This document shows positions 6,319 to 43,845 of a stretch of DNA of 64,000 nucleotides, in pieces (the stretch's first letter is position 1; each line of letters starts with the position of its first letter). The translations under genes were made by a program, and so were the position numbers. The DNA lies in NCBI GenBank assembly GCA_038206475.1, contig JBBRAU010000002.1, positions 13,892 to 77,891 on the forward strand, read 5' to 3'. This stretch comes from Patescibacteria group bacterium (lineage in GTDB: Bacteria; Patescibacteriota; UBA1384; JBBRAU01). Below the pieces are notes generated by a model that had not been told where the DNA came from, made no database searches, and saw only the letters and a list, made by a program, of their open reading frames with translations.

Positions 6319-7002
6319 ATGAAAGGGATCACGCTGCATGGCACCCCGGAGGGCTGGCGGAAAATGCCAGTCAAAACCGGGACCGTACGGCTCCACAGAA
6401 CCACGCCGGGGCGGCTGTGGTTTCAAACGCTCATCGTGGAGGAGGGCAGGGAGCATGTGTTCCTGCCCGATGGCTCCGCCGTGGTCAAGGGTCTCGGTGG
6501 GGTCACCACCCTGATACCGGGCCCTAAATACGGCGGCGGCGAAGTCACCCCCGTGACGACGCCGGCCGGGATGGTAGTGGTGAACACCACGACCACCCCG
6601 GGGTCAGCTCGGACACTTCTAAACGCCCGCGGGTGGGGCGGGTATATTCTTGACCCGCTCACCGCAACGGCAACGCCATTCGGCTGCCCCCCAATCCGGT
6701 GGGCAGCCGAACTGCGACCGGACCAGTTCATAGTTGTCGACCCAGGCGGCTACTACGCCTACCGAGTCGACGTGACCTTCCCCATCAACCCCCGCCGCGT
6801 CCAGGGTGACGTTGGCGGCAACGGCAGGTTCGACCTGTCGGATGCCCTGTTGGCGTTGTACTTGCTTCACGGGGATATCAACGCCAACCCCGGCCAGAAA
6901 CAGGCCGCGGACGTCGATGGCGACGGCTTCGTAACGCTGGAAGACGTCATCCGGATGCTGTACGCAGCAACCGGAACGCCATTCAGCTCCCCGCTCTGGT
7001 AA
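6319..7002 (+). CDS. Protein with C-terminal dockerin-like (paired EF-hand Ca-binding) domain
   Basis: DVGGNGRFDLSDALLALYLL and ADVDGDGFVTLEDVIRMLY repeats; by eye the gene is markedly more GC-rich than its neighbours, with CGG/GGG/CCG codons. Confidence 0.55.
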   Translation: MKGITLHGTPEGWRKMPVKTGTVRLHRTTPGRLWFQTLIVEEGREHVFLPDGSAVVKGLGGVTTLIPGPKYGGGEVTPVTTPAGMVVVNTTTTPGSARTLLNARGWGGYILDPLTATATPFGCPPIRWAAELRPDQFIVVDPGGYYAYRVDVTFPINPRRVQGDVGGNGRFDLSDALLALYLLHGDINANPGQKQAADVDGDGFVTLEDVIRMLYAATGTPFSSPLW

Positions 7003-35605: not shown

Positions 35606-36225
35606 GCGCTAACCTTTCGAATTTCCAGCATGCTGCCGCGCGGACCAGGCAAAGCACCTTTGATCAGCACTGTCTCAGTATCAGCGTCAACAGCAACTAC
35701 TTCGGCGTTCTTGACCGTCACCTGGACATTACCCATATGACCCGGCAATTTGCGCCCTTTCATGACGTGCTGCGGGAACATCGAACCAATTGAGCCCGGG
35801 GCACGGTGATGGTCTGAGCCATGCGTCTCCGGACCGCGACTAAAGCCGTGGCGCTTGATAACACCGGAGAAGCCCTTGCCTTTGCTGGTGCCGGTCACTT
35901 TGACTTTGTCGCCCGCGGTAAATACAGAACAAGAGAGGGCGTCACCAGGCGTGGGTACGTCCTCTGTTTCAGCGTCAATGATGGTTTCGCGAATAAACGC
36001 CAGATTGTCACGACCAGCGGCAGCCAAGTGGCCGCGCATTGGTTTGGTCTGACTCTTCTTGCTGCCAGCGCCAATTTGGACGGCAGCATAGCCGTCTTTC
36101 TCAACCGTTTTGATCTGAGTAACCACATTGGGCCGCACCAAAACTACCGTGACAGGAATGTCGCGGCCGTCTTCATCAAAGATGCGGGTCATGCCGACCT
36201 TTTGGCCAAGCACGAATGAAATCAT
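35602..36225 (-). CDS. rplC: 50S ribosomal protein L3
   Basis: LGQKVGMTRIFDEDGRDIPVTVV...; start at ATG 36225 with GGAG SD. Confidence 0.9.
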   Translation of the reverse strand: MISFVLGQKVGMTRIFDEDGRDIPVTVVLVRPNVVTQIKTVEKDGYAAVQIGAGSKKSQTKPMRGHLAAAGRDNLAFIRETIIDAETEDVPTPGDALSCSVFTAGDKVKVTGTSKGKGFSGVIKRHGFSRGPETHGSDHHRAPGSIGSMFPQHVMKGRKLPGHMGNVQVTVKNAEVVAVDADTETVLIKGALPGPRGSMLEIRKVSA

Positions 36226-36422
36226 GTGGTCTCCGGTTTCGGTTGCTCTCGGGTCTTCATCTTCAACCAATATTTGGTTGAAATGCAACTCATGCCTGCG
36301 CACGAGAAGTCAAGAACCGCACTCTTGCGGTTCCGTCCGTCTAGCTCAGCTGCCAAACGCTAAATAAGCGAGAGGCTCAGGCGCCTGGGCAGACACCATC
36401 GGCCTTGCTATCTCTACAGCTG

Positions 36423-36451
36423 ACCTTACCGAAAATATAGTCACACGTCAA
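36423..36451 (-). promoter_or_regulatory. Candidate sigma70-like promoter for the rplC operon
   Basis: Minus strand TTGACG - 17 nt - TAAGGT, about 190 nt upstream of the rplC start. Confidence 0.3.
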
Positions 36452-36525
36452 CTATCCTGCCATCACCGACCCGTCCGCTATTGATAATTATTTCGTCCCC
36501 GCTCTTGAACAAGGAGGCGTCGTCC

Positions 36526-36666
36526 ATGGCTGATCGAGTATGCATTAATGTTGGGAAGGGATACGCTCTTGAGCCAAACCAACTAACAGAGTACCGTGGC
36601 AAGAAAGCAGGACTTCCAACAGCAGAGCCGCTGAGACTCGCTGTGCTACTCTCTATTAATCAATAG
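36526..36666 (+). CDS. Small ORF (46 aa) antisense to the r-protein operon, unknown function
   Basis: AAGGAGG SD 8 nt before ATG 36526; followed by two hairpins; CTA/AGA/GGA codons atypical of neighbours. Confidence 0.3.
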   Translation: MADRVCINVGKGYALEPNQLTEYRGKKAGLPTAEPLRLAVLLSINQ

Positions 36667-36720
36667 AGCTGCCTCAAAGAGGAGATGCTGGCGCATCTCA
36701 TCACTCTGCCTCGTCCGACT

Positions 36721-36755
36721 AAAAGAGCCCCGACCACATGGCCGGGGCTCTTTTT
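36721..36755. terminator. Hairpin terminator between rpsJ and the antisense small ORF
   Basis: 8-bp stem GAGCCCCG/CGGGGCTC, T5 run on plus strand, U4 on minus. Confidence 0.6.
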
Positions 36756-36776
36756 ATGTCCTATTGAGAAGAAGAA

Positions 36777-37106
36777 CTAGCCTTTGATTTCAACGTCGAC
36801 GCCGGCTGGCAGGTCCAGCGACATCAATGCGTCAATAGTCTTTGGCGTTGGCTCAAGCACGTCAATCAAGCGCTTGTGAACCCGAATTTCAAACTGCTCA
36901 CGAGCATCTTTATACTTGTTGGTGGCCCGGTTGACCGTGGTCATAGTGCGGTCGGTCGGCAGCGGAATGGGGCCGGCCACTTGGGCGCCGGTCCTCTCGG
37001 CCGTCTCAATAATCTGCAGGGCAGACTTATCGATGATGCGATAGTCGTAAGCCTTTAGCTTGATGCGGATTTTTTGTACGTCCTTCTTGTTAGTTGCGGC
37101 GGTCAC
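36777..37106 (-). CDS. rpsJ: 30S ribosomal protein S10
   Basis: [18 protein letters not shown]...; start set at GTG 37106 with AAGGAG SD 5 nt upstream. Confidence 0.9.
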
Positions 37107-37152
37107 GTGGTCTCCTTGGTACAAATCTCGTTGCTGATATTTGCTTTGACTG

Positions 37153-37202
37153 TCACGAACGTAGTGAGTGAAAAGGTTCTGGCGCGTAGCGACAGGTTCT
37201 TA
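37153..37202 (-). repeat. Recurring bipartite intergenic motif (copy between tuf stop and rpsJ start)
   Basis: Minus-sense TAAGAACCTGTCGCTACGCGCCAGAACCTTTTCACTCACTACGTTCGTGA; the TAA is the tuf stop codon. Confidence 0.6.
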
Positions 37203-38384
37203 TTTGACGATTTTGGTGACAGCACCAGCACCGACGGTGCGGCCGCCTTCTCGGATAGCGAAGCGCATGCCATCTTCCATGGCAATTGGAGCAATCAGCT
37301 TAACAGTGATATGCACGGTGTCACCTGGCATGGCCATTTCAGTGTCGGCCGGCAGGAAGACTTCACCAGTGACGTCGGTGGTGCGGATGTAAAACTGCGG
37401 TTTGTAACCTTTAAAGAACGGCGTGTGGCGGCCACCCTCTTCTTTGGTCAAGACGTAAATCTCGGCCTCAAATTCGGTGTGGGGCGTAATGGAGCCGGGC
37501 TTGGCTAACACCTGGCCGCGCTCAATCTCTTCACGCTCAATTCCGCGCAGCAAGGCGCCGATGTTATCGCCAGCCTGACCTTGGTCAAGCAGTTTCTTGA
37601 ACATTTCCACACCAGTGACAACCACTTTGCGAGTTGGCTTGACACCGACAATCTCAACCTCTTCGTTGATTTTGACGATGCCGCGCTCAACGCGACCAGT
37701 AGCCACCGTACCGCGGCCTTTAATAGAGAAGACATCTTCAACTGGCATCAGGAACGGCTTGTCGACGTCGCGAACTGGGTCTGGGATGAAATCATCCAAG
37801 GCCTTGACCAGCTCCATAATGTTCTCTTCGTACTTGGCGTCACCCTCAAGCGCCTTCAGGGCGCTGCCACGGATGATCGGCGTGTCGTCGCCTGGGTACT
37901 CATATTTGGACAAGAGCTCGCGGACTTCCATTTCAACCAGATCCAAAAGCTCTGGGTCGTCTACCATGTCAACTTTGTTCAAGAAAACGACAACGGCTGG
38001 CACACCAACTTGGCGCGCCAACAGAATGTGCTCGCGGGTTTGCGGCATCGGGCCGTCGGCGGCGGAAACCACCAAGATGGCGCCATCCATTTGGGCGGCA
38101 CCGGTGATCATGTTTTTGACGTAGTCAGCGTGGCCTGGGCAGTCAACGTGAGCGTAGTGACGCTTCTCTGACTCATACTCCTGGTGGGAGGTAGCGATGG
38201 TAATGCCGCGCTCGCGCTCTTCTGGTGCGTTGTCGATTTCATCGAACTTCTTGGCGGTAGCCATACCCTTTTTGGCCAACACGTGGGTGATGGCAGCGGT
38301 TAAGGTCGTTTTACCGTGATCAACGTGACCAATTGTGCCGACATTGACGTGCGGCTTGTTGCGCTGGAAGGTCTCCTGAGCCAT
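37200..38384 (-). CDS. tuf: Elongation factor Tu
   Basis: [16 protein letters not shown]1 motif, DCPGHADY; start at ATG 38384 with AAGGAG SD. Confidence 0.95.
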
Positions 38385-38493
38385 ACATACTCCTTCTGAC
38401 TTACCCATTGGTGCTTAGACACGACCAATGAGGACCCGCATGCGACCCCAAAAGGCCGCTTTGCGTAGAACTTTGATTTATTTACTCATAAGC

Positions 38494-38522
38494 AGACTAA
38501 CTGATTTTATTGCCTTGGTCAA
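38494..38522 (-). promoter_or_regulatory. Candidate promoter for tuf
   Basis: Minus strand TTGACC - 17 nt - TAGTCT, about 110 nt upstream of the tuf start. Confidence 0.35.
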
Positions 38523-38552
38523 TATTTTGCCACCGGGCCGCTGAGGACGATG

Positions 38553-38586
38553 TAAAAAATCCCCACCGCAGTGTTGCGCGGTGGGG
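38553..38586 (-). terminator. Rho-independent terminator after the small secreted-protein gene
   Basis: 9-bp stem CCCCACCGC/GCGGTGGGG followed on the minus strand by AUUUUUU. Confidence 0.65.
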
Positions 38587-38605
38587 ATGAGGATGCTTGC
38601 CGGCC

Positions 38606-38902
38606 TCAGGGGCCGGCGGTGTCCCACGCGGACTCGGGCAGGAGCTCACTCTCCCTGCGGGCACTGTATATCCCCAGCAGGGCCAGATCCTTCTCGTTTT
38701 CCTCGCCGCGGGCCCCCCTGTACAGGGGCAGGAACTCCTTGCACCAGTCCTGCACGTCCGCATCCTCGGACGTGCAGTCACCGGCGATGGCCAGCCTTTC
38801 GCCATCGTCTTGCTGGTACCTTTCTGTGCCGTCGGTGATGTCGAAGAAGCAGAACATCACCACGAGCACCACGCAGGCGAACACTTCAACGATTTTTTTC
38901 AT
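38606..38902 (-). CDS. Small secreted or membrane-anchored acidic Cys-containing protein, unknown function
   Basis: GGAGG SD 7 nt before ATG; N-terminal hydrophobic segment MKKIVEVFACVVLVVMFCFF; own terminator; AGG/CTG/GTG/GAC codon usage. Confidence 0.5.
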   Translation of the reverse strand: MKKIVEVFACVVLVVMFCFFDITDGTERYQQDDGERLAIAGDCTSEDADVQDWCKEFLPLYRGARGEENEKDLALLGIYSARRESELLPESAWDTAGP

Positions 38903-38982
38903 TGCAGGCCTCCTTGGCCGCGAAATAAAAGGAACAGAGAGTGACTATTTAATTTATGCATTATTTAGTATACTTTGTCAAT

Positions 38983-39783
38983 ATGAAGTATCTCTGGCCG
39001 GCCGCTATCACCCTATGCCTACTGAGCCTATTTTTGTGGCTCCACACGTGGCAACGACCGGCAAACAGCATTGCAGCCTCACCGCAAGCCTCCAGCACTG
39101 CCTATTCGGCTCCACCGAACCCGCTGGCCAGCCTTTCAGCCTCCCCCGCTCTAGTAGACAGTCACACGCCTACGCGTATACCTAAGACGCGTCCAGCCAG
39201 CGTCAATATCAGCGTGCCATTTACTGTCCAGGCGCCAACTGGCCGTTGGGATGCCTTTCATGAGGAAACCTGTGAAGAAGCGGCGGCGCTGATGGCTGCC
39301 TATTGGCGCGACGCCAAATTGCACCGCAGCCTGGGTGACCCAGCCAAAATCCCCAACGATACGACCGAGACCGCTCTGCGCGCAATTGCCGATTGGGAGA
39401 CGCAAACGTTCGGCTATTGGCAAGATACGACGGCCACCGAAACAGCCGAAATTATAACCGATTATTTTCACCTGCAGGCGTCAGTAGAAACCATTGTCAG
39501 CACTGACACAATTGAACAGGCGCTGGCCGACGGCCATTTGGTACTGCTGCCGACCGCCGGCCGTCTACTAAATAGCCCCTACTACACGGCGCCGGGGCCG
39601 GCTTACCACTTTTTGCTCATCCGCGGTTATACCAACACCGACTTCATTACCAACGACGCCGGCACGAAGTACGGCGCAGGCTACCAATTTCGGAAAAAAA
39701 CCGTTCTGCAGGCCATTCACGACTGGACAGGAGACGCGGAAACCATTACAACTGGTCGTAGCGTCATGATTGTCGTGCAGTAG
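38983..39783 (+). CDS. Peptidase C39-like (YvpB-like) domain protein, N-terminal signal anchor
   Basis: Hydrophobic N-terminus, Ser/Pro/Ala linker, VPFTVQAPTGRWDAFHEETCEEAAALMAAYW resembling C39_2 catalytic Cys region; start ambiguous (38956 or 38983). Confidence 0.55.
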   Translation: MKYLWPAAITLCLLSLFLWLHTWQRPANSIAASPQASSTAYSAPPNPLASLSASPALVDSHTPTRIPKTRPASVNISVPFTVQAPTGRWDAFHEETCEEAAALMAAYWRDAKLHRSLGDPAKIPNDTTETALRAIADWETQTFGYWQDTTATETAEIITDYFHLQASVETIVSTDTIEQALADGHLVLLPTAGRLLNSPYYTAPGPAYHFLLIRGYTNTDFITNDAGTKYGAGYQFRKKTVLQAIHDWTGDAETITTGRSVMIVVQ

Positions 39784-39804
39784 CTTTGGAGCTCGAAAAG
39801 GGGA

Positions 39805-40206
39805 ATGATGATTGATCTTCAACATATTGATGCGCGTGCTGAACCGCTAACAGAAGAAAAAGTGCAGGCCATCCTGCTTGGATGCCGGATACGGACAGGA
39901 AAAGCAGCCAGAAAACTGTCGGCCGAATGGTATGAACTGAAATATTACCCAAAGTGGAAGGAGGGCTGGCTGCAGCTCAAAATACTGCGTGAAACCCCCT
40001 ATCCCGAGCGAACAGCCATGCTCTATCACTTCCTCGTCACCTTGCACCTTCACCACTGCTTATCCCACACGCACCAACGTCTTGTCGGGCCGATCACGCT
40101 CTGCGACGCCATGGATGAACAAGTGGCGCTGCTCTGCCAAAATGTCAGCCGTAACCCACCGTGGCGGGAGTGGTGGCTGTTGCAGCATATTCCTGGATAC
40201 CGCTAA
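39805..40206 (+). CDS. Hypothetical protein (His/Cys-rich segment LHLHHCLSHTH)
   Basis: 133-aa ORF with upstream AAAGGGG; ends at a hairpin terminator. Confidence 0.45.
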   Translation: MMIDLQHIDARAEPLTEEKVQAILLGCRIRTGKAARKLSAEWYELKYYPKWKEGWLQLKILRETPYPERTAMLYHFLVTLHLHHCLSHTHQRLVGPITLCDAMDEQVALLCQNVSRNPPWREWWLLQHIPGYR

Positions 40207-40208
40207 CC

Positions 40209-40236
40209 AAAACCCCGCTCTCCGGCGGGGCTTTTT
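40209..40236. terminator. Bidirectional terminator shared by the plus-strand insert and fusA
   Basis: CCCCGC/GCGGGG stem flanked by AAAA and TTTTT. Confidence 0.6.
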
Positions 40237-40295
40237 ATAACATAAGCAAATTATCGAGAAGCGTTCAGTTTGGCTGGATGTTTTTAAGCTCCGCG

Positions 40296-42368
40296 CTACC
40301 TGACTTTACCGGCCTTAATCTCTTCGGCGATATTGTTAGGCACTGGATCGTAGTGATCAAACTCCATGGCGTAGCTGGCCCGGCCTTGCGACAACGAACG
40401 CAGGCTGGTGGCGTAACCAAACATCGAGGCCAAGGGCACCATCGCCCGAATAACTTTAATACCAGCCCGCTCAGTCATTTCCTGAATTTGGCCGCGCTTG
40501 GCATTTAAGTCGCCCATGGCGTCACCCATAAACTCTTCTGGAGTAGTCACCTCAACGTGCATGATCGGTTCAAGAATGACCGGCTTAGCCTTGCGCACCC
40601 CTTCTTGGAAGGCCATTGAGCCGGCGATTTGGAAGGCCATTTCAGAGGAGTCAACTTCATGGAAGCTACCGTCATACAGAACGGCCTTAACGTCTACCAC
40701 TGGATAGCCAGCCACAACACCCTTGTGCGTCGCCTCTTCAATGCCTTTAGCCACCGGATTGATGTACTCCTTGGGAATAGTACCGCCGACAATTTTAGAT
40801 TCAAAGGTGAAACCACTGCCTGGCTCGCCGGGCGACAGCTCGAGCCAAACATGGCCGTACTGACCGCGTCCACCAGACTGGCGAATAAACTTGCCCTCTT
40901 GCTTGACCGTTTCGGTAATCGCTTCGCGGAAGGCGACCTGCGGTTTTCCGACGTTCGCTTCAACTTTGAACTCTCGCTTCATGCGGTCAACGATAATCTC
41001 GAGGTGTAGTTCACCCATACCGGCAATGATGGTCTGGCCAGAATCCTCGTCTGTCCGCACTTGGAACGTCGGGTCCTCTTCGGCGAGGCGCTGCAGAGCC
41101 ACACCCATCTTCTCTTGGTCAGCCTTAGTTTTCGGCTCAATCGCGACGTCAATAACCGGCTCTGGGAAGGTTATGGACTCCAGTTGCACCGGGTGCTCCG
41201 GGTCGCAGAGGGTGTTTCCAGTACGAGTGTTTTTAAGGCCGACGGCAGCCGCAATGTCTCCAGAGTACACTTCACTAACATCCTCGCGGTGATTAGCATG
41301 CAGCTGAACAATGCGACCGATACGCTCTTTATCGCCGGTAGCGGTGTTTAAAATGTAGCTGCCGGCCCGCAGGACTCCACGATAAACGCGGAAGAAGATG
41401 AGTTTACCGACAAACGGATCAGCTGCCACCTTGAAGGCCAGGGCGGCAAACGGCGCCTCGTCATCGGCGGCAATGCCAATATCCTCTTTGGTTTTTAAGT
41501 CAACGCCATGGGCTGGTGGCACGTCCAGCGGCGATGGCAAGTAGGCGACAATAGCGTCGAGCAGCGTTTCAACAACGACGCCACGGCCGTCTCCACCAAG
41601 AATCAGGAAGAAGTCGCCTTTAATGACCGCCTTGCGGATGGCTGTCCGAAAATCAGCGTCAGAAATTTCGTCGCCATTTAAGTATTTTTCAAGCAGCGCG
41701 TCATCAGCCTCAACCGCTTTCTCCAGCAATTCCGTACGGTACTGTTCAATTTGAGCGGCCATGTCGGCTGGCGGCTCACCTTCAACCAGCTCGTGGTCAG
41801 TGTAATCTTTATAGGTGTAAGCTTTGCGCGAAACCAGATCAACCACGCCATTCATTGACTGTTCAAAGCCAATCGGCAGCTGCAGGGGGAAGGCATTCGG
41901 CGACAGGCGCTCGCGGATAGAGGCCAGTGAATTAAAGAAATCGCCGCCGGTTTGGTTAATTTTATTAATAAAGCAGATGCGCGGCACTTGATACTTGTCA
42001 GCCTGGCGCCAGACTGTTTCTGACTGCGGCTCAACACCCATTTTGCCGTCAAAGATAACGACGGCGCCATCCAGCACACGCAGCGAGCGCTCAACTTCAA
42101 CTGTAAAGTCAACGTGTCCAGGCGTGTCGATAATATTAATGCGGTGACCCTTCCAAAAGGCGGAGGTGGCGGCTGAAGTAATGGTAATGCCGCGCTCGCG
42201 CTCTTGCTCCATCCAGTCCATGGTGGCTTCGCCCTCATGGACCTCACCGATTTTGTGGGTTTTGCCGGTGCGGTACAAAATGCCTTCGGTCACTGTCGTT
42301 TTGCCTGCATCAATGTGGGCAATCGTGCCAAAGTTGCGCGTGTGGTCTAGAGAGTACTCTCGGGGCAT
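40296..42368 (-). CDS. fusA: Elongation factor G
   Basis: [10 protein letters not shown]1 motif, 690 aa. Confidence 0.95.
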
Positions 42369-42430
42369 GGGGTATTTCGTCTTTCTTCACTTGTGGCAAC
42401 ACAAAATTTGCCGTGTTGTCATCTCTGGCC

Positions 42431-42459
42431 AGACTAGCACAAAAAGGCTGTTTCGCCAA
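42431..42459 (-). promoter_or_regulatory. Candidate promoter for fusA
   Basis: Minus strand TTGGCG - 17 nt - TAGTCT (same -10 hexamer as the tuf candidate). Confidence 0.35.
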
Positions 42460-42480
42460 TCTGGTATGCTCTGCAGATGC

Positions 42481-42891
42481 TCAAAGAAGGCCGAGGTTTT
42501 GCTTATGACGAATAGAGGCTTTGGTACTGTCGCCGGATTTTCTCGGTCGGAGCGACCGGTATTGTAGGTTTGGCGGCCAATATAGCCTCCACGGGTTTAA
42601 CCTGACAAAAAAACGGAGGCGCATGGCGCCTCCGAAGAGTCGTTTTTGAGATTTACATGACTCGACGATGCACACATCATCGGCATGGTCGAACATCGAC
42701 ACAATGACGAACAAGAGCAGCAGCGGATACGGCTCAACATTCTCGATCAGGCCAGGAGCGCTTGGTAGCGTTATGCTGAAGTTGCCCGCCTGAGTATTGC
42801 CAGTTGACGGCGTTTTGCGCACGATGGGGCCGCTATTTCCTACAGGCAGCACGTCTGAATCAATGTGGATGACGGAGCGATTTTCAGGCAT
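42481..42891 (-). CDS. ORF of doubtful coding status downstream of the STAS gene
   Basis: Only open frame in the region; N-terminal two-thirds has plausible codon usage, but the frame runs through a strong terminator hairpin and a rare-codon W/R/P-rich tail. Confidence 0.2.
   Translation of the reverse strand: MPENRSVIHIDSDVLPVGNSGPIVRKTPSTGNTQAGNFSITLPSAPGLIENVEPYPLLLLFVIVSMFDHADDVCIVESCKSQKRLFGGAMRLRFFVRLNPWRLYWPPNLQYRSLRPRKSGDSTKASIRHKQNLGLL
42607..42634 (-). terminator. Strong rho-independent terminator
   Basis: 9-bp stem CGGAGGCGC/GCGCCTCCG with 3-nt loop, followed on the minus strand by U7. Confidence 0.65.
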
Positions 42892-43276
42892 TGGCTTTCT
42901 CCTGTTGCACGAAGGGAGCGAGAAACTGGACGGCTTCTTGCTCGGTTGCAAAAATAGTGAAGGTTTTCGTCAAGCCGGCGGCGTCTAGTACCCGTTGCGG
43001 TTGATCCGTGATCTGCAGCAACACGAGCTGACCCCCGTACCCGCGAATGCATCTGAGGGACCAGACAAGCCCTCCCAGCCCCGCCACGTCCATGTACGTA
43101 ACTAAGTGCATATTGAGGCCAATATAACGCCGGCCCAACAACTTCATTTTGACAACCATCTCGAGAAGACCAGGCGAGCTGTATGTGTCGAGTTCACCCT
43201 GAAGATCCAAAATGGTTACGCCGTCTACTTCTCGCTGCTCAATATCAAACTCCACCGACCTTCTCCTTATTGTCAC
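42884..43276 (-). CDS. STAS-domain protein (anti-sigma-factor antagonist-like)
   Basis: ILDLQGELD...LVTYMDVAGLGGLV...GGQLVLLQITDQPQRVLDAAGLTKTFTIFATEQEAVQFL; GTG start. Confidence 0.7.
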   Translation of the reverse strand: MTIRRRSVEFDIEQREVDGVTILDLQGELDTYSSPGLLEMVVKMKLLGRRYIGLNMHLVTYMDVAGLGGLVWSLRCIRGYGGQLVLLQITDQPQRVLDAAGLTKTFTIFATEQEAVQFLAPFVQQEKANA

Positions 43277-43320
43277 GGTGTTGCAAGATAGCTATTAGCC
43301 AACCACAACCATGGCTTAAA

Positions 43321-43348
43321 AGCAACAAAATCCGGCCTGAAGCCGGAT
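43321..43348 (-). terminator. Hairpin terminator after rpsG
   Basis: ATCCGGC/GCCGGAT stem followed by a U-rich tract on the minus strand. Confidence 0.5.
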
Positions 43349-43371
43349 GTTATCTTGAGACCAGCTAGTTT

Positions 43372-43845
43372 TTAGTAGCGAGCGAAATGAGCGAAAGCGC
43401 GGTTGGCCTCAGCCATTTTATGCATGTCTTCGCGTTTCTTCATGGCAGCGCCGGTGCCGGCAAAACCGTCCGAGATTTCATCAGCTAGGAAACGCCACAT
43501 TGGTTTGCCTTGGCGGTCACGGGCGGCATTAATAATCCAGCGCATGGCCAAAGCTGTGCGACGCTCGGTGCGCACCTCCATTGGTACTTGATAGTTGGCA
43601 CCGCCGACACGACGGCTGCGTACCTCAACCACTGGGCTAACATTTTTAATAACTTGTTCCAACAGTTCGGAAGGCTCTTGCTTGGTGCACTTAGCAGCCT
43701 CTTCCAGCGCCTGATAGACAATCTTTTTGGCCACAGTTTTTTTGCCATTCAACATAACCATATTAATTAATTTGGTTACGGTAATTGAGCCAAATTGCTC
43801 ATCTGGCGGCAGCAGTCTTTTTTTGAGATGGGTCTTCCCACGCAT
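43372..43845 (-). CDS. rpsG: 30S ribosomal protein S7
   Basis: 157 aa, conserved S7 N-terminal pattern and operon position. Confidence 0.9.
   Translation of the reverse strand: MRGKTHLKKRLLPPDEQFGSITVTKLINMVMLNGKKTVAKKIVYQALEEAAKCTKQEPSELLEQVIKNVSPVVEVRSRRVGGANYQVPMEVRTERRTALAMRWIINAARDRQGKPMWRFLADEISDGFAGTGAAMKKREDMHKMAEANRAFAHFARY

Follow-up and report, generated by a model that had tools for sequence, protein, structure and literature searches.

A gene-bearing spacer splits fusA from tuf in a Patescibacteria genome, as at many fusA-tuf junctions of the phylum, and encodes a predicted exported Peptidase_C39_2 protein

The fusA and tuf genes of this Patescibacteria genome, both on the minus strand, are separated by a spacer of 1,911 nt (38385-40295) that holds three ORFs. 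The split was confirmed, but splits of this kind are common in Patescibacteria, and the locus is largely ordinary. The spacer is probably a permissive junction filled specifically in this lineage, rather than a mobile island or a demonstrable functional module. Positions refer to the window, the whole stretch of 64,000 nt that was analysed. The features of the locus are listed below, with promoters and terminators predicted from the sequence.

37200-38384, minus strand: tuf (EF-Tu), downstream boundary of the spacer, with an AAGGAG Shine-Dalgarno (SD) sequence upstream of its start
38522-38494, minus strand: candidate tuf promoter TTGACC-17-TAGTCT, read from the sequence, a consensus match only, with a weak -10
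38533-38504, minus strand: candidate tuf promoter GTGGCA-18-TAAAAT, from a consensus scan, a consensus match only
38559-38588, minus strand: predicted intrinsic terminator of sm98, a 12-bp stem followed by UUUUUU
38606-38902, minus strand: sm98, an orphan ORF of 98 aa with a strong SD sequence and its own predicted terminator
38903-38982, no strand assigned: divergent control region of sm98 and the peptidase gene, with promoter-like and SD motifs
38956-39783, plus strand: predicted Peptidase_C39_2 (YvpB-type, papain-fold) cysteine peptidase, 275 aa, Pfam PF13529
39805/39808-40206, plus strand: ORF133/132, an orphan ORF of 133/132 aa, coding status uncertain
40213-40230, both strands: G+C-rich hairpin between an A-tract and a T-tract, predicted to act as an intrinsic terminator in both directions, for fusA (minus) and ORF133 (plus)
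40296-42368, minus strand: fusA (EF-G, 690 aa), an ORF, upstream boundary of the spacer

The tuf ORF extends over 37200-38408, but the gene itself begins with the ATG at 38384 (MAQETF...), which has the AAGGAG in front. The first-pass annotation had described the pair as split by a 1.9-kb insertion of three genes with their own signals. The coordinates agree, and the arrangement recurs in an independent assembly. The order tuf-sm98-C39-ORF132-fusA was found in the Logan assembly of run SRR19962014 (L001, 2,954 bp) with proteins that are 100% identical; there the gene call for ORF132 starts at the second ATG.

In a canonical co-transcribed str operon (rpsL-rpsG-fusA-tuf), fusA and tuf lie tens to about 200 nt apart with no terminator or gene between them. 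The window shares the gene order and strand of this operon, inside the rpoBC-str-S10-spc cluster. Unlike the canonical operon, however, it has two gene-bearing spacers, one with a STAS gene between rpsG and fusA and the other with the three ORFs and two predicted terminators. Terminator-like hairpins are predicted after rpsG, the STAS insert, fusA and rpsJ. Separate candidate promoters were assigned to fusA and to tuf; the site for fusA is promoter-like and follows the predicted terminator of the STAS gene.

The first-pass annotation had reasoned that fusA and tuf are adjacent in nearly all bacteria. This does not hold in Patescibacteria. The junctions of relatives were compared among the matches listed, in which the best EF-G identity was about 75% (73-75% for the EF-G proteins of Patescibacteria loci). 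Among these matches, 26 of the 37 Patescibacteria junctions exceeded 400 nt (460-6,345 nt) and contained unrelated genes; in other bacteria all 51 loci listed were at or below 426 nt, and 49 of the 51 at or below 200 nt. The cargo of the Patescibacteria junctions, as identified by Pfam, included a Phd/YefM-like small gene, pilin-like proteins, a CYTH-domain protein and a CxxCxxCC-domain protein. A putative ATCase, FabD, a P-type ATPase and aromatic-amino-acid enzymes were recognised by eye only. In a neighbour-joining tree of EF-G and EF-Tu, occupied and empty junctions were interleaved. With unrelated cargo in so many junctions and this interleaving, the split is routine in the phylum. We found no functional study of the str operon in Patescibacteria in the literature.

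We also examined whether the three genes can be regarded as an insertion, and this part of the first-pass annotation survived in part. The nearest relatives in the tree, among the matches listed, have geneless junctions: that of the sister locus L091, whose EF-Tu is 86% identical to that of the window, is 241 nt long, and that of the nearby L004 is 199 nt long. Homologues of the peptidase lie away from fusA and tuf in all eight contexts examined. Both observations favour insertion, although the split itself is routine in the phylum. When the tuf upstream region of the window was aligned with the L091 and L004 junctions, no insertion boundaries could be defined because the three regions are too divergent. 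The pair L097 and L098 also speaks for a permissive junction. Their EF genes are near-identical, and they differ by about 700 nt inserted right after the fusA stop; the other edge is a conserved tuf-proximal region of about 150 nt with TTTACA-17-TATACT. The synteny comparison proposed with the first-pass annotation placed the three ORFs outside the conserved str-operon architecture, as sm98, the peptidase gene and ORF133 were found at none of the 37 Patescibacteria junctions that span both genes (among the matches listed). The same three genes with ordinary composition across the lineage, which would speak for conserved architecture, were thus not seen at these junctions, and the composition of sm98 is anomalous.

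These results suggest how the junction may have become permissive. In Patescibacteria, tuf is predicted to have its own promoter, and the ribosomal super-operon appears to be already split into separate predicted units, each with a terminator-like hairpin at its end. Genes could therefore settle between fusA and tuf with neither being disturbed, and the junction would have been filled repeatedly with different cargo. Here the cargo would form two units. The peptidase gene and ORF133 would make up one on the plus strand, ending at the bidirectional terminator in common with fusA, and sm98 the other on the minus strand, with its own SD sequence and terminator. Since about 70% of the sampled fusA-tuf junctions (among the matches listed) are occupied by unrelated genes, synteny reasoning based on the integrity of the str and S10 operons does not hold for Patescibacteria. 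This affects annotation by operon, checks on concatenated marker genes and heuristics for misassembly in these genomes. The junction is also a defined site for studying new-gene gain in small-genome symbionts. The single locus matters little: its yield is a further exported cysteine peptidase of the YvpB type, from a family already widely annotated in candidate-phyla-radiation genomes, and two orphan ORFs.

Each ORF group in the spacer has its own start and stop signals. A terminator after fusA had been noted at 40209-40236, and we recovered it as the predicted hairpin at 40213-40230. On the minus strand it reads as an A-tract, a stem and UUUUGG (-20.3 kcal/mol, z -2.8), and on the plus strand as GGGGCUUUUUAUAA (-13.5 kcal/mol). 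Because a U-tract follows on each strand, the hairpin is predicted to be able to terminate both ORF133 and fusA. The predicted terminator of sm98 is stronger (-23.1 kcal/mol, z -4.9), and 0 of 200 shuffles were as strong. In the divergent control region, AAGGAGG lies 6 nt upstream of the sm98 ATG, and the consensus scan gave a promoter-like TTCATA-16-AATAAT at 38987-38960 on the minus strand. The peptidase probably starts at the ATG at 38983 (MKYLWPAAITLCLL...), a start chosen to match the N-termini seen in homologous proteins. TATACT at 38969-38974 lies 8 nt ahead of this ATG, so the peptidase mRNA may be leaderless. The own promoter and SD sequence claimed for tuf were confirmed only in part: the AAGGAG and the TTGACC-17-TAGTCT motif are present, but the -10 is weak and the consensus scan missed the motif.

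We propose that the sole interpretable product of the spacer is a cysteine peptidase with a papain fold, of the Peptidase_C39_2 / YvpB type, that is secreted or type-II-anchored, as modelled from its sequence. The HMM search matched PF13529 at 31.2 bits (cut-off 24; E 3.9e-7) over profile positions 2-141 of 143. The match is modest by its E-value. In the protein, an N-terminal membrane helix is joined by a disordered Ser/Pro/Ala linker to a catalytic domain at residues ~80-275. Q92, C106, H218 and D234 were invariant in 24 aligned sequences, and the 161 homologues found were mostly from Patescibacteria and Margulisbacteria. Structure prediction by AF2 gave a confident papain-like model (pLDDT 85.6 overall), with values above 94 across the catalytic domain except for one 10-residue block at 78; a helix was placed at residues 13-31, and residues 37-70 were of low confidence. 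The top Foldseek matches were 3ERV (a C39-like peptidase), Alr0975, PeiR and cathepsins, with probability 1.0 for 3ERV, Alr0975, cathepsin S, papain and PeiR. The model and these matches both point to the papain-like alpha+beta fold. PDB sequence and profile searches gave no meaningful match, and fold comparison alone succeeded. The first-pass description of a plus-strand C39-like peptidase with a signal anchor is therefore borne out by the Pfam match, the four invariant residues, the model and the N-terminal helix. In the cell, the helix would hold the protein in the membrane and the linker would present the catalytic domain outside. Cys106 is the putative nucleophile. His218, held in orientation by Asp234, would serve as general base, and the oxyanion hole would come from Gln92.

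Among known systems, the protein is closest to the Peptidase_C39_2 / YvpB type represented by PDB 3ERV of Bacillus anthracis. It shares a Pfam match above the gathering score and the conserved Gln, Cys, His and Asp, 3ERV is its best structural match, and its homologues also have an N-terminal export or anchor segment. Unlike Peptidase_C39_2 in general, however, the subfamily is divergent and largely restricted to Patescibacteria and Margulisbacteria, with a long low-complexity linker and invariant motifs of its own (CEEA, AGR, GPxYH, NDxGT and HD). Classical C39 bacteriocin-processing domains (ComA/LagD, PF03412) belong to the same clan and have the same papain-like Cys/His core. The peptidase differs from them in that it is neither fused to nor beside an ABC transporter, and its domain is predicted to point away from the cytoplasm. 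Pfam gave no match to PF03412, with PF13529 as the sole match. No ABC transporter was found in the spacer or among its neighbours, and no double-glycine leader peptide was found next to the peptidase, the N-terminus of sm98 being a hydrophobic anchor without a GG-leader. A classical C39 bacteriocin-leader peptidase was rejected on these grounds.

The most likely substrate class, by analogy, is envelope peptides, either peptidoglycan stem or cross-link peptides or surface proteins. In phages that infect Gram-positive bacteria, PF13529 is used by endolysins as a catalytic domain (PMC8223927). Homologues of the peptidase adjoin MurJ (twice), Peptidase_M23, GT2 and ABC-2 exporters, and one (P0063) is fused to VanZ. 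An envelope role would follow from the endolysin domains, these neighbours and the fusion. The pseudomurein endoisopeptidase PeiR is structurally similar (TM 0.46-0.48 on target), and like PeiR and the phage endolysins the peptidase is predicted to be extracytoplasmic. Unlike papain-fold cell-wall hydrolases, it has no cell-wall-binding domain and no phage context, and activity on peptidoglycan is putative. No functional study of YvpB or other Peptidase_C39_2 members and no characterised close homologue were found in the literature. The subfamily is conserved, exported, uncharacterised and sometimes encoded beside MurJ or M23 genes, which makes it a reasonable target in envelope biology.

The other two products match nothing in Pfam, NCBIfam, PHROGs or PADLOC, so the HMM searches suggested for them yielded no family; a MobI match (E 0.069, below cut-off) was dismissed. 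We therefore considered whether the peptidase alone is a gene, with ORF133 and, less likely, sm98 being ORFs that arose by chance or are decaying within non-coding filler. ORF133 is an uncertain case. It was described as a plus-strand hypothetical with a His-rich motif, and it does carry the stretch TLHLHHCLSHTHQ (motif HLHHCLSHTH). The predicted protein is basic (pI 8.7), has no hydrophobic segment and is of unusual composition, with 6 Trp, 8 His and 4 Cys in 132 aa. Its codon score of 0.009 per codon is below that of known genes (0.10-0.61), but above that of all five other frames. A word-indexed search of 5.8e9 clusters returned only ORF133 itself. A full HMMER scan of 1.84e9 representatives added two weak matches to repeat proteins of 1,140-1,570 aa, which were judged uninformative, their scores being inflated by repeats of about 35 residues. 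The single-sequence AF2 model had a pLDDT of 41.6, too low for a fold search. Against a chance ORF, ORF133 takes up nearly the whole gap between the peptidase gene and the terminator, leaving 24 nt after the stop codon of the former and 6 nt ahead of the latter, and an SD-like AAAGGGG lies 4 nt upstream of it. It is probably co-transcribed with the peptidase gene.

For sm98, a word-indexed search of a very large protein collection likewise returned only the query. However, its strong 3-base periodicity (GC1/2/3 of 0.62/0.39/0.83), its codon score of 0.24, the canonical AAGGAGG and the dedicated strong predicted terminator argue against a chance ORF. The protein has an N-terminal hydrophobic anchor (residues ~4-22; Kyte-Doolittle maximum of 2.68 at residue 13) and an acidic tail (pI 4.2). 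It contains 4 Cys, two of them within the hydrophobic segment, and the earlier label of a small secreted Cys-protein is overstated. From these sequence features, sm98 is probably a real small membrane protein, recently acquired or fast-evolving. Taken together, we regard it as rather unlikely that only the peptidase gene is real.

The first-pass annotation had proposed an accessory island in a core operon. Such an island, whether gained by horizontal transfer or left over from a mobile element or prophage, could account for the composition of sm98, whose GC3 of 0.83 (GC 0.62) is about 5.6 sd above the window mean of 0.588 (sd 0.043). This value hints at horizontal acquisition of at least the sm98 piece, which the permissive-junction account does not explain. 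The separate signals of every spacer unit would also fit an island, as would an imperfect 13-nt direct repeat (11/13) flanking the block at 38487-38499 and 40241-40253. However, 27 of 300 shuffles equalled this repeat, and it was rejected as a target-site duplication. GC3 is native in the peptidase gene (0.61) and ORF133 (0.59), which leaves sm98 alone as anomalous, and homologues of the peptidase are encoded by ordinary chromosomal genes within this phylum. No integrase or transposase was found; the window has just two tRNA genes (238-313 and 1870-1945), both far from the spacer. PHROG and PADLOC searches gave no match, nor did phage and plasmid collections at the DNA level. With the hallmarks of mobile DNA missing from these searches, a mobile island is improbable.

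A last proposal holds that the three genes form a surface module, in which sm98 would be a membrane-anchored acidic partner of the secreted or anchored peptidase, serving as its inhibitor, substrate or anchor, and ORF133 would be an accessory or regulatory protein in the cytoplasm. The three ORFs lie close together and have a divergent control region in common, and an N-terminal hydrophobic anchor is present in the peptidase as well as in sm98. The closest peptidase homologue (L002, 62% identity) also has a divergent small ORF upstream, with a transmembrane segment and elevated GC3. However, this ORF showed no significant similarity to sm98 by BLASTP, MAFFT or DNA alignment. Such a partner was absent in the seven other homologue contexts, where the neighbours differ. 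No ORF133-like gene was found in the homologue searches or contexts, and neither a double-glycine leader nor a bacteriocin-type ABC transporter accompanies the peptidase. The pairing of a secreted peptidase with a small secreted protein in a surface or host-interaction module thus comes down to adjacency, sm98 and ORF133 having no homologues, and we consider the module very doubtful. A broader reading joins two claims. The fusA-tuf, rpsG-fusA and rpsJ-rplC junctions would be recurrent landing sites in Patescibacteria for unrelated, often orphan genes because the core genes are autonomous transcription units. A young surface module would have been captured at this one, made up of the exported cysteine peptidase and two taxonomically restricted genes, ORF133 and sm98, the latter possibly from a high-GC donor. 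In envelope remodelling or host contact, sm98 might serve, as an acidic protein tethered to the membrane, to inhibit or dock the peptidase. We give this joint reading little credence.

An Rfam scan of 36200-43400 at a relaxed threshold gave sub-threshold matches only, both on the two terminator hairpins. The one to STnc370 at 40213-40230 looks like a generic terminator-hairpin match.

On the minus strand of the window, the genes run in the order rpoB-rpoC-rpsL-rpsG-fusA-tuf-rpsJ-rplC..., and fusA and tuf were found to lie 1,911 nt apart, with three ORFs between them:

40296-42368, minus strand: fusA (ORF listing)
40213-40230, both strands: hairpin between an A-tract and a T-tract (terminator scan and folding)
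39805/39808-40206, plus strand: ORF133/132
38956-39783, plus strand: peptidase ORF, 275 aa
38606-38902, minus strand: sm98
38588-38559, minus strand: predicted sm98 terminator, 12-bp stem and U6 (-23.1 kcal/mol, z -4.9)
38522-38494, minus strand: candidate tuf promoter TTGACC-17-TAGTCT (motif of the first-pass annotation)
38384 (start) to 37200 (end), minus strand: tuf, protein MAQETF..., with AAGGAG ahead of the start

This arrangement was confirmed in L001, a Logan assembly of run SRR19962014, which covers the end of tuf, all three spacer ORFs and the end of fusA with a 100% match for each protein. Since this assembly is independent, the split is no binning artefact.

The hairpin at 40213-40230 folded at -13.5 kcal/mol on the plus strand and -20.3 kcal/mol on the minus strand. 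We read it as a predicted bidirectional terminator that would serve both ORF133 and fusA, in agreement with the fusA terminator proposed in the first-pass annotation. The tuf promoter motif proposed there is present; our scan favoured an overlapping GTGGCA-18-TAAAAT, and both are consensus matches only. ORF133 starts 24 nt past the peptidase stop, behind AAAGGGG, which suggests that the two genes are probably co-transcribed. ATG 38983 is the probable start of the peptidase. No Shine-Dalgarno sequence was found ahead of the peptidase ORF, and a TATACT (38969-38985 region) ends 8 nt ahead of this ATG, so that a leaderless mRNA is possible.

The sm98 reading frame scored 0.24 per codon with strong codon periodicity (GC1/2/3 = 0.62/0.39/0.83), and AAGGAGG is located 6 nt ahead of its ATG. 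Codon usage, a canonical Shine-Dalgarno sequence and a dedicated predicted terminator suggest that sm98 is a genuine gene. At about 5.6 sd over the window mean of 0.588, its GC3 makes it look foreign. The protein has a hydrophobic N-terminal segment, an acidic tail, a pI of 4.2 and four Cys residues, two of them within the anchor segment. ORF133 is basic, has no hydrophobic segment and carries HLHHCLSHTH. Its codon score (0.009) was above all alternative frames and below known genes, and its single-sequence structure model was unusable (pLDDT 41.6); we consider it fairly likely to be a gene. In a search of 5.8 billion clusters, sm98 and ORF133 each recovered only themselves, family libraries gave no match for either, and a full HMMER scan with ORF133 returned just two matches, both weak and repeat-inflated. 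By these searches, both are orphans.

We then compared fusA-tuf junctions across bacteria. EF-G was the query against species-representative genomes, and a segment of EF-G specific to the lineage was used against metagenome contigs; rpsG, fusA, tuf and rpsJ were placed in each locus by tblastn. Among the matches listed, all 51 loci with both genes from bacteria outside the candidate phyla radiation had a junction of at most 426 nt (at most 200 nt in 49). Among the listed Patescibacteria (drawn from loci L004-L145), 37 loci had both genes; the junction exceeded 400 nt in 26 (460-6,345 nt) and was at most 241 nt in 11. Some additional Patescibacteria loci lacked tuf in the several kb around fusA. 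The genes filling the junction were unrelated and varied between loci. They included assorted membrane proteins, pilin-like proteins, a Phd/YefM-like small gene (nine loci, eight inside the 37) and, as judged only by eye, an ATCase-like gene, methyltransferase/FabD-like genes, a P-type ATPase and aromatic-amino-acid genes. These results indicate that the split is ordinary in Patescibacteria, where the near-universal fusA-tuf adjacency assumed in the first-pass annotation does not hold.

The Phd/YefM-like gene lies co-directionally and directly upstream of tuf in L005, L007, L010, L011 (for example, L011:3897-4319), L012, L014, L015, L018 and L024; it was not found in the window. Its antitoxin-like N-terminus is approximately ...LKKxINLxKKTGDRIIxF...YVLMxLxEYExL (local HMM E 1e-17 to 1e-31; Pfam PF02604 weak, E 0.006). 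The related low-GC loci L014 (8204-9343) and L015 (2726-5519) carry, at the fusA-tuf junction, one and two tandem type IV pilin-like genes, respectively, with the prepilin N-methylation motif (PF07963). The rpsG-fusA spacers of Patescibacteria were often enlarged too, up to about 2 kb (L013 and L078).

Relatives of sm98, the peptidase and ORF133 were found at none of the sampled junctions. In a neighbour-joining tree of EF-G+EF-Tu, the sister of the window among the matches listed was L091, with an empty junction of 241 nt; next came L093 (1,938 nt, a hypothetical gene and an ATCase-like gene) and then L004 (199 nt, empty). Empty and occupied junctions were intermingled all over the tree. The insertion reading is thus partly supported: the filling is lineage-specific relative to the nearest listed relatives (EF-G identity only 73-75%), but the split itself is common.

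Recent filling of a junction is cleanly illustrated by the metagenomic relatives L097 and L098, near-identical in EF-G/EF-Tu and differing by about 700 nt (L097:9480-9800, L098:5496-6510). The extra segment contains a terminator and an oppositely oriented gene for a 185-aa membrane protein. It sits precisely in the interval that separates the fusA stop from a conserved tuf-proximal promoter/leader region of about 150 nt containing TTTACA-17-TATACT. Therefore, tuf retains its own predicted promoter when the junction is empty, and cargo settles upstream of it, as in the window.

The following features were found elsewhere in the window:

42884-43276, minus strand: STAS-domain gene, anti-sigma-factor antagonist-like (PF01740 E 7.5e-17, TIGR00377 E 8e-18)
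42634-42614, minus strand: strong predicted terminator past the STAS gene (-20.2 kcal/mol)
42608-42579, minus strand: promoter-like TTGTCA-18-TATATT for fusA, past that terminator
about 36721-36756, minus strand: hairpin past rpsJ, GAGCCCCGGC...GCCGGGGCTC and TTTT

The STAS gene lies between rpsG and fusA (42369-43371), a second gene-bearing break of the str operon, with no partner kinase or phosphatase adjoining it. In the S10 operon rpsJ and rplC are usually contiguous, whereas here the hairpin and about 470 nt up to the rplC ORF (36304-36776; longer up to the probable rplC start) separate them, with no convincing gene or Rfam match in the gap. Together, these breaks support a super-operon that was already broken. 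The spacer is best explained as a permissive junction that genes occupied opportunistically: division into autonomous predicted units would have left the fusA-tuf junction open to incoming genes.

No evidence for a mobile island emerged. No integrase, transposase or adjacent tRNA was found at the spacer, its DNA matched nothing in phage and plasmid collections, and PHROG and PADLOC gave zero matches for its ORFs. An 11/13 direct repeat flanking the block was rejected as an insertion mark, being equalled by 27 of 300 shuffles. The peptidase and ORF133 are native in composition, and sm98 alone among the three gives a hint of foreign origin. Of the 67 ORFs in the window that reach 90 aa, just one more is a strong GC3 outlier: 6319-7002 on the plus strand (0.78). 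It overlaps minus-strand ORFs and could therefore be either foreign or a shadow frame.

The peptidase matched Pfam PF13529 (Peptidase_C39_2; 31.2 bits, cut-off 24) and had 161 homologues, with named sources in Uhrbacteria, Paceibacterota, Berkelbacteria, Parcubacteria, Margulisbacteria and one Binatia. Q92, C106 (CEEA), H218 (GPxYH) and D234 (ND) were invariant in a 24-sequence alignment. The AlphaFold2 model built with this alignment (pLDDT 85.6) shows a helix spanning residues 13-31, then a Ser/Pro/Ala linker of low confidence that reaches about residue 80, and finally a catalytic domain scoring above 94, bar one 10-residue block at 78. Sequence searches of the PDB gave no match; Foldseek, run on the same database, placed first 3ERV, a putative C39-like peptidase of B. 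anthracis, followed by phytochelatin-synthase-like Alr0975, cathepsin S, papain and the pseudomurein endoisopeptidase PeiR. Thus, the gene is predicted to encode an intact cysteine peptidase of papain fold whose N-terminus directs anchoring or export.

The first-pass annotation had suggested that it and sm98 could represent a surface or host-interaction module. At L002, the locus of the closest homologue (62% identity), a small ORF that encodes a transmembrane segment lies upstream in divergent orientation, without detectable similarity to sm98; downstream is a different gene in convergent orientation. The remaining homologues have other neighbours, and all eight contexts examined were away from fusA and tuf. 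These comparisons thus gave no evidence for a module beyond the adjacency of the genes.

Among the endolysins of phages that infect Gram-positive bacteria, PF13529 is found as a catalytic domain (PMC8223927). Homologues of the peptidase adjoin MurJ twice, as well as Peptidase_M23, a GT2 and ABC-2 exporters, and one is fused to VanZ. These observations indirectly suggest an envelope role. Both homologues next to MurJ, the lipid II flippase, are convergent with it on two unrelated contigs (L147:4001-6207 and L148:4001-6104). In two Uhrbacteria genomes (L085 and L146), homologues lie inside a conserved RNase_H_2-like / C39_2 / DUF2938 / xseA-xseB / holin-like block.
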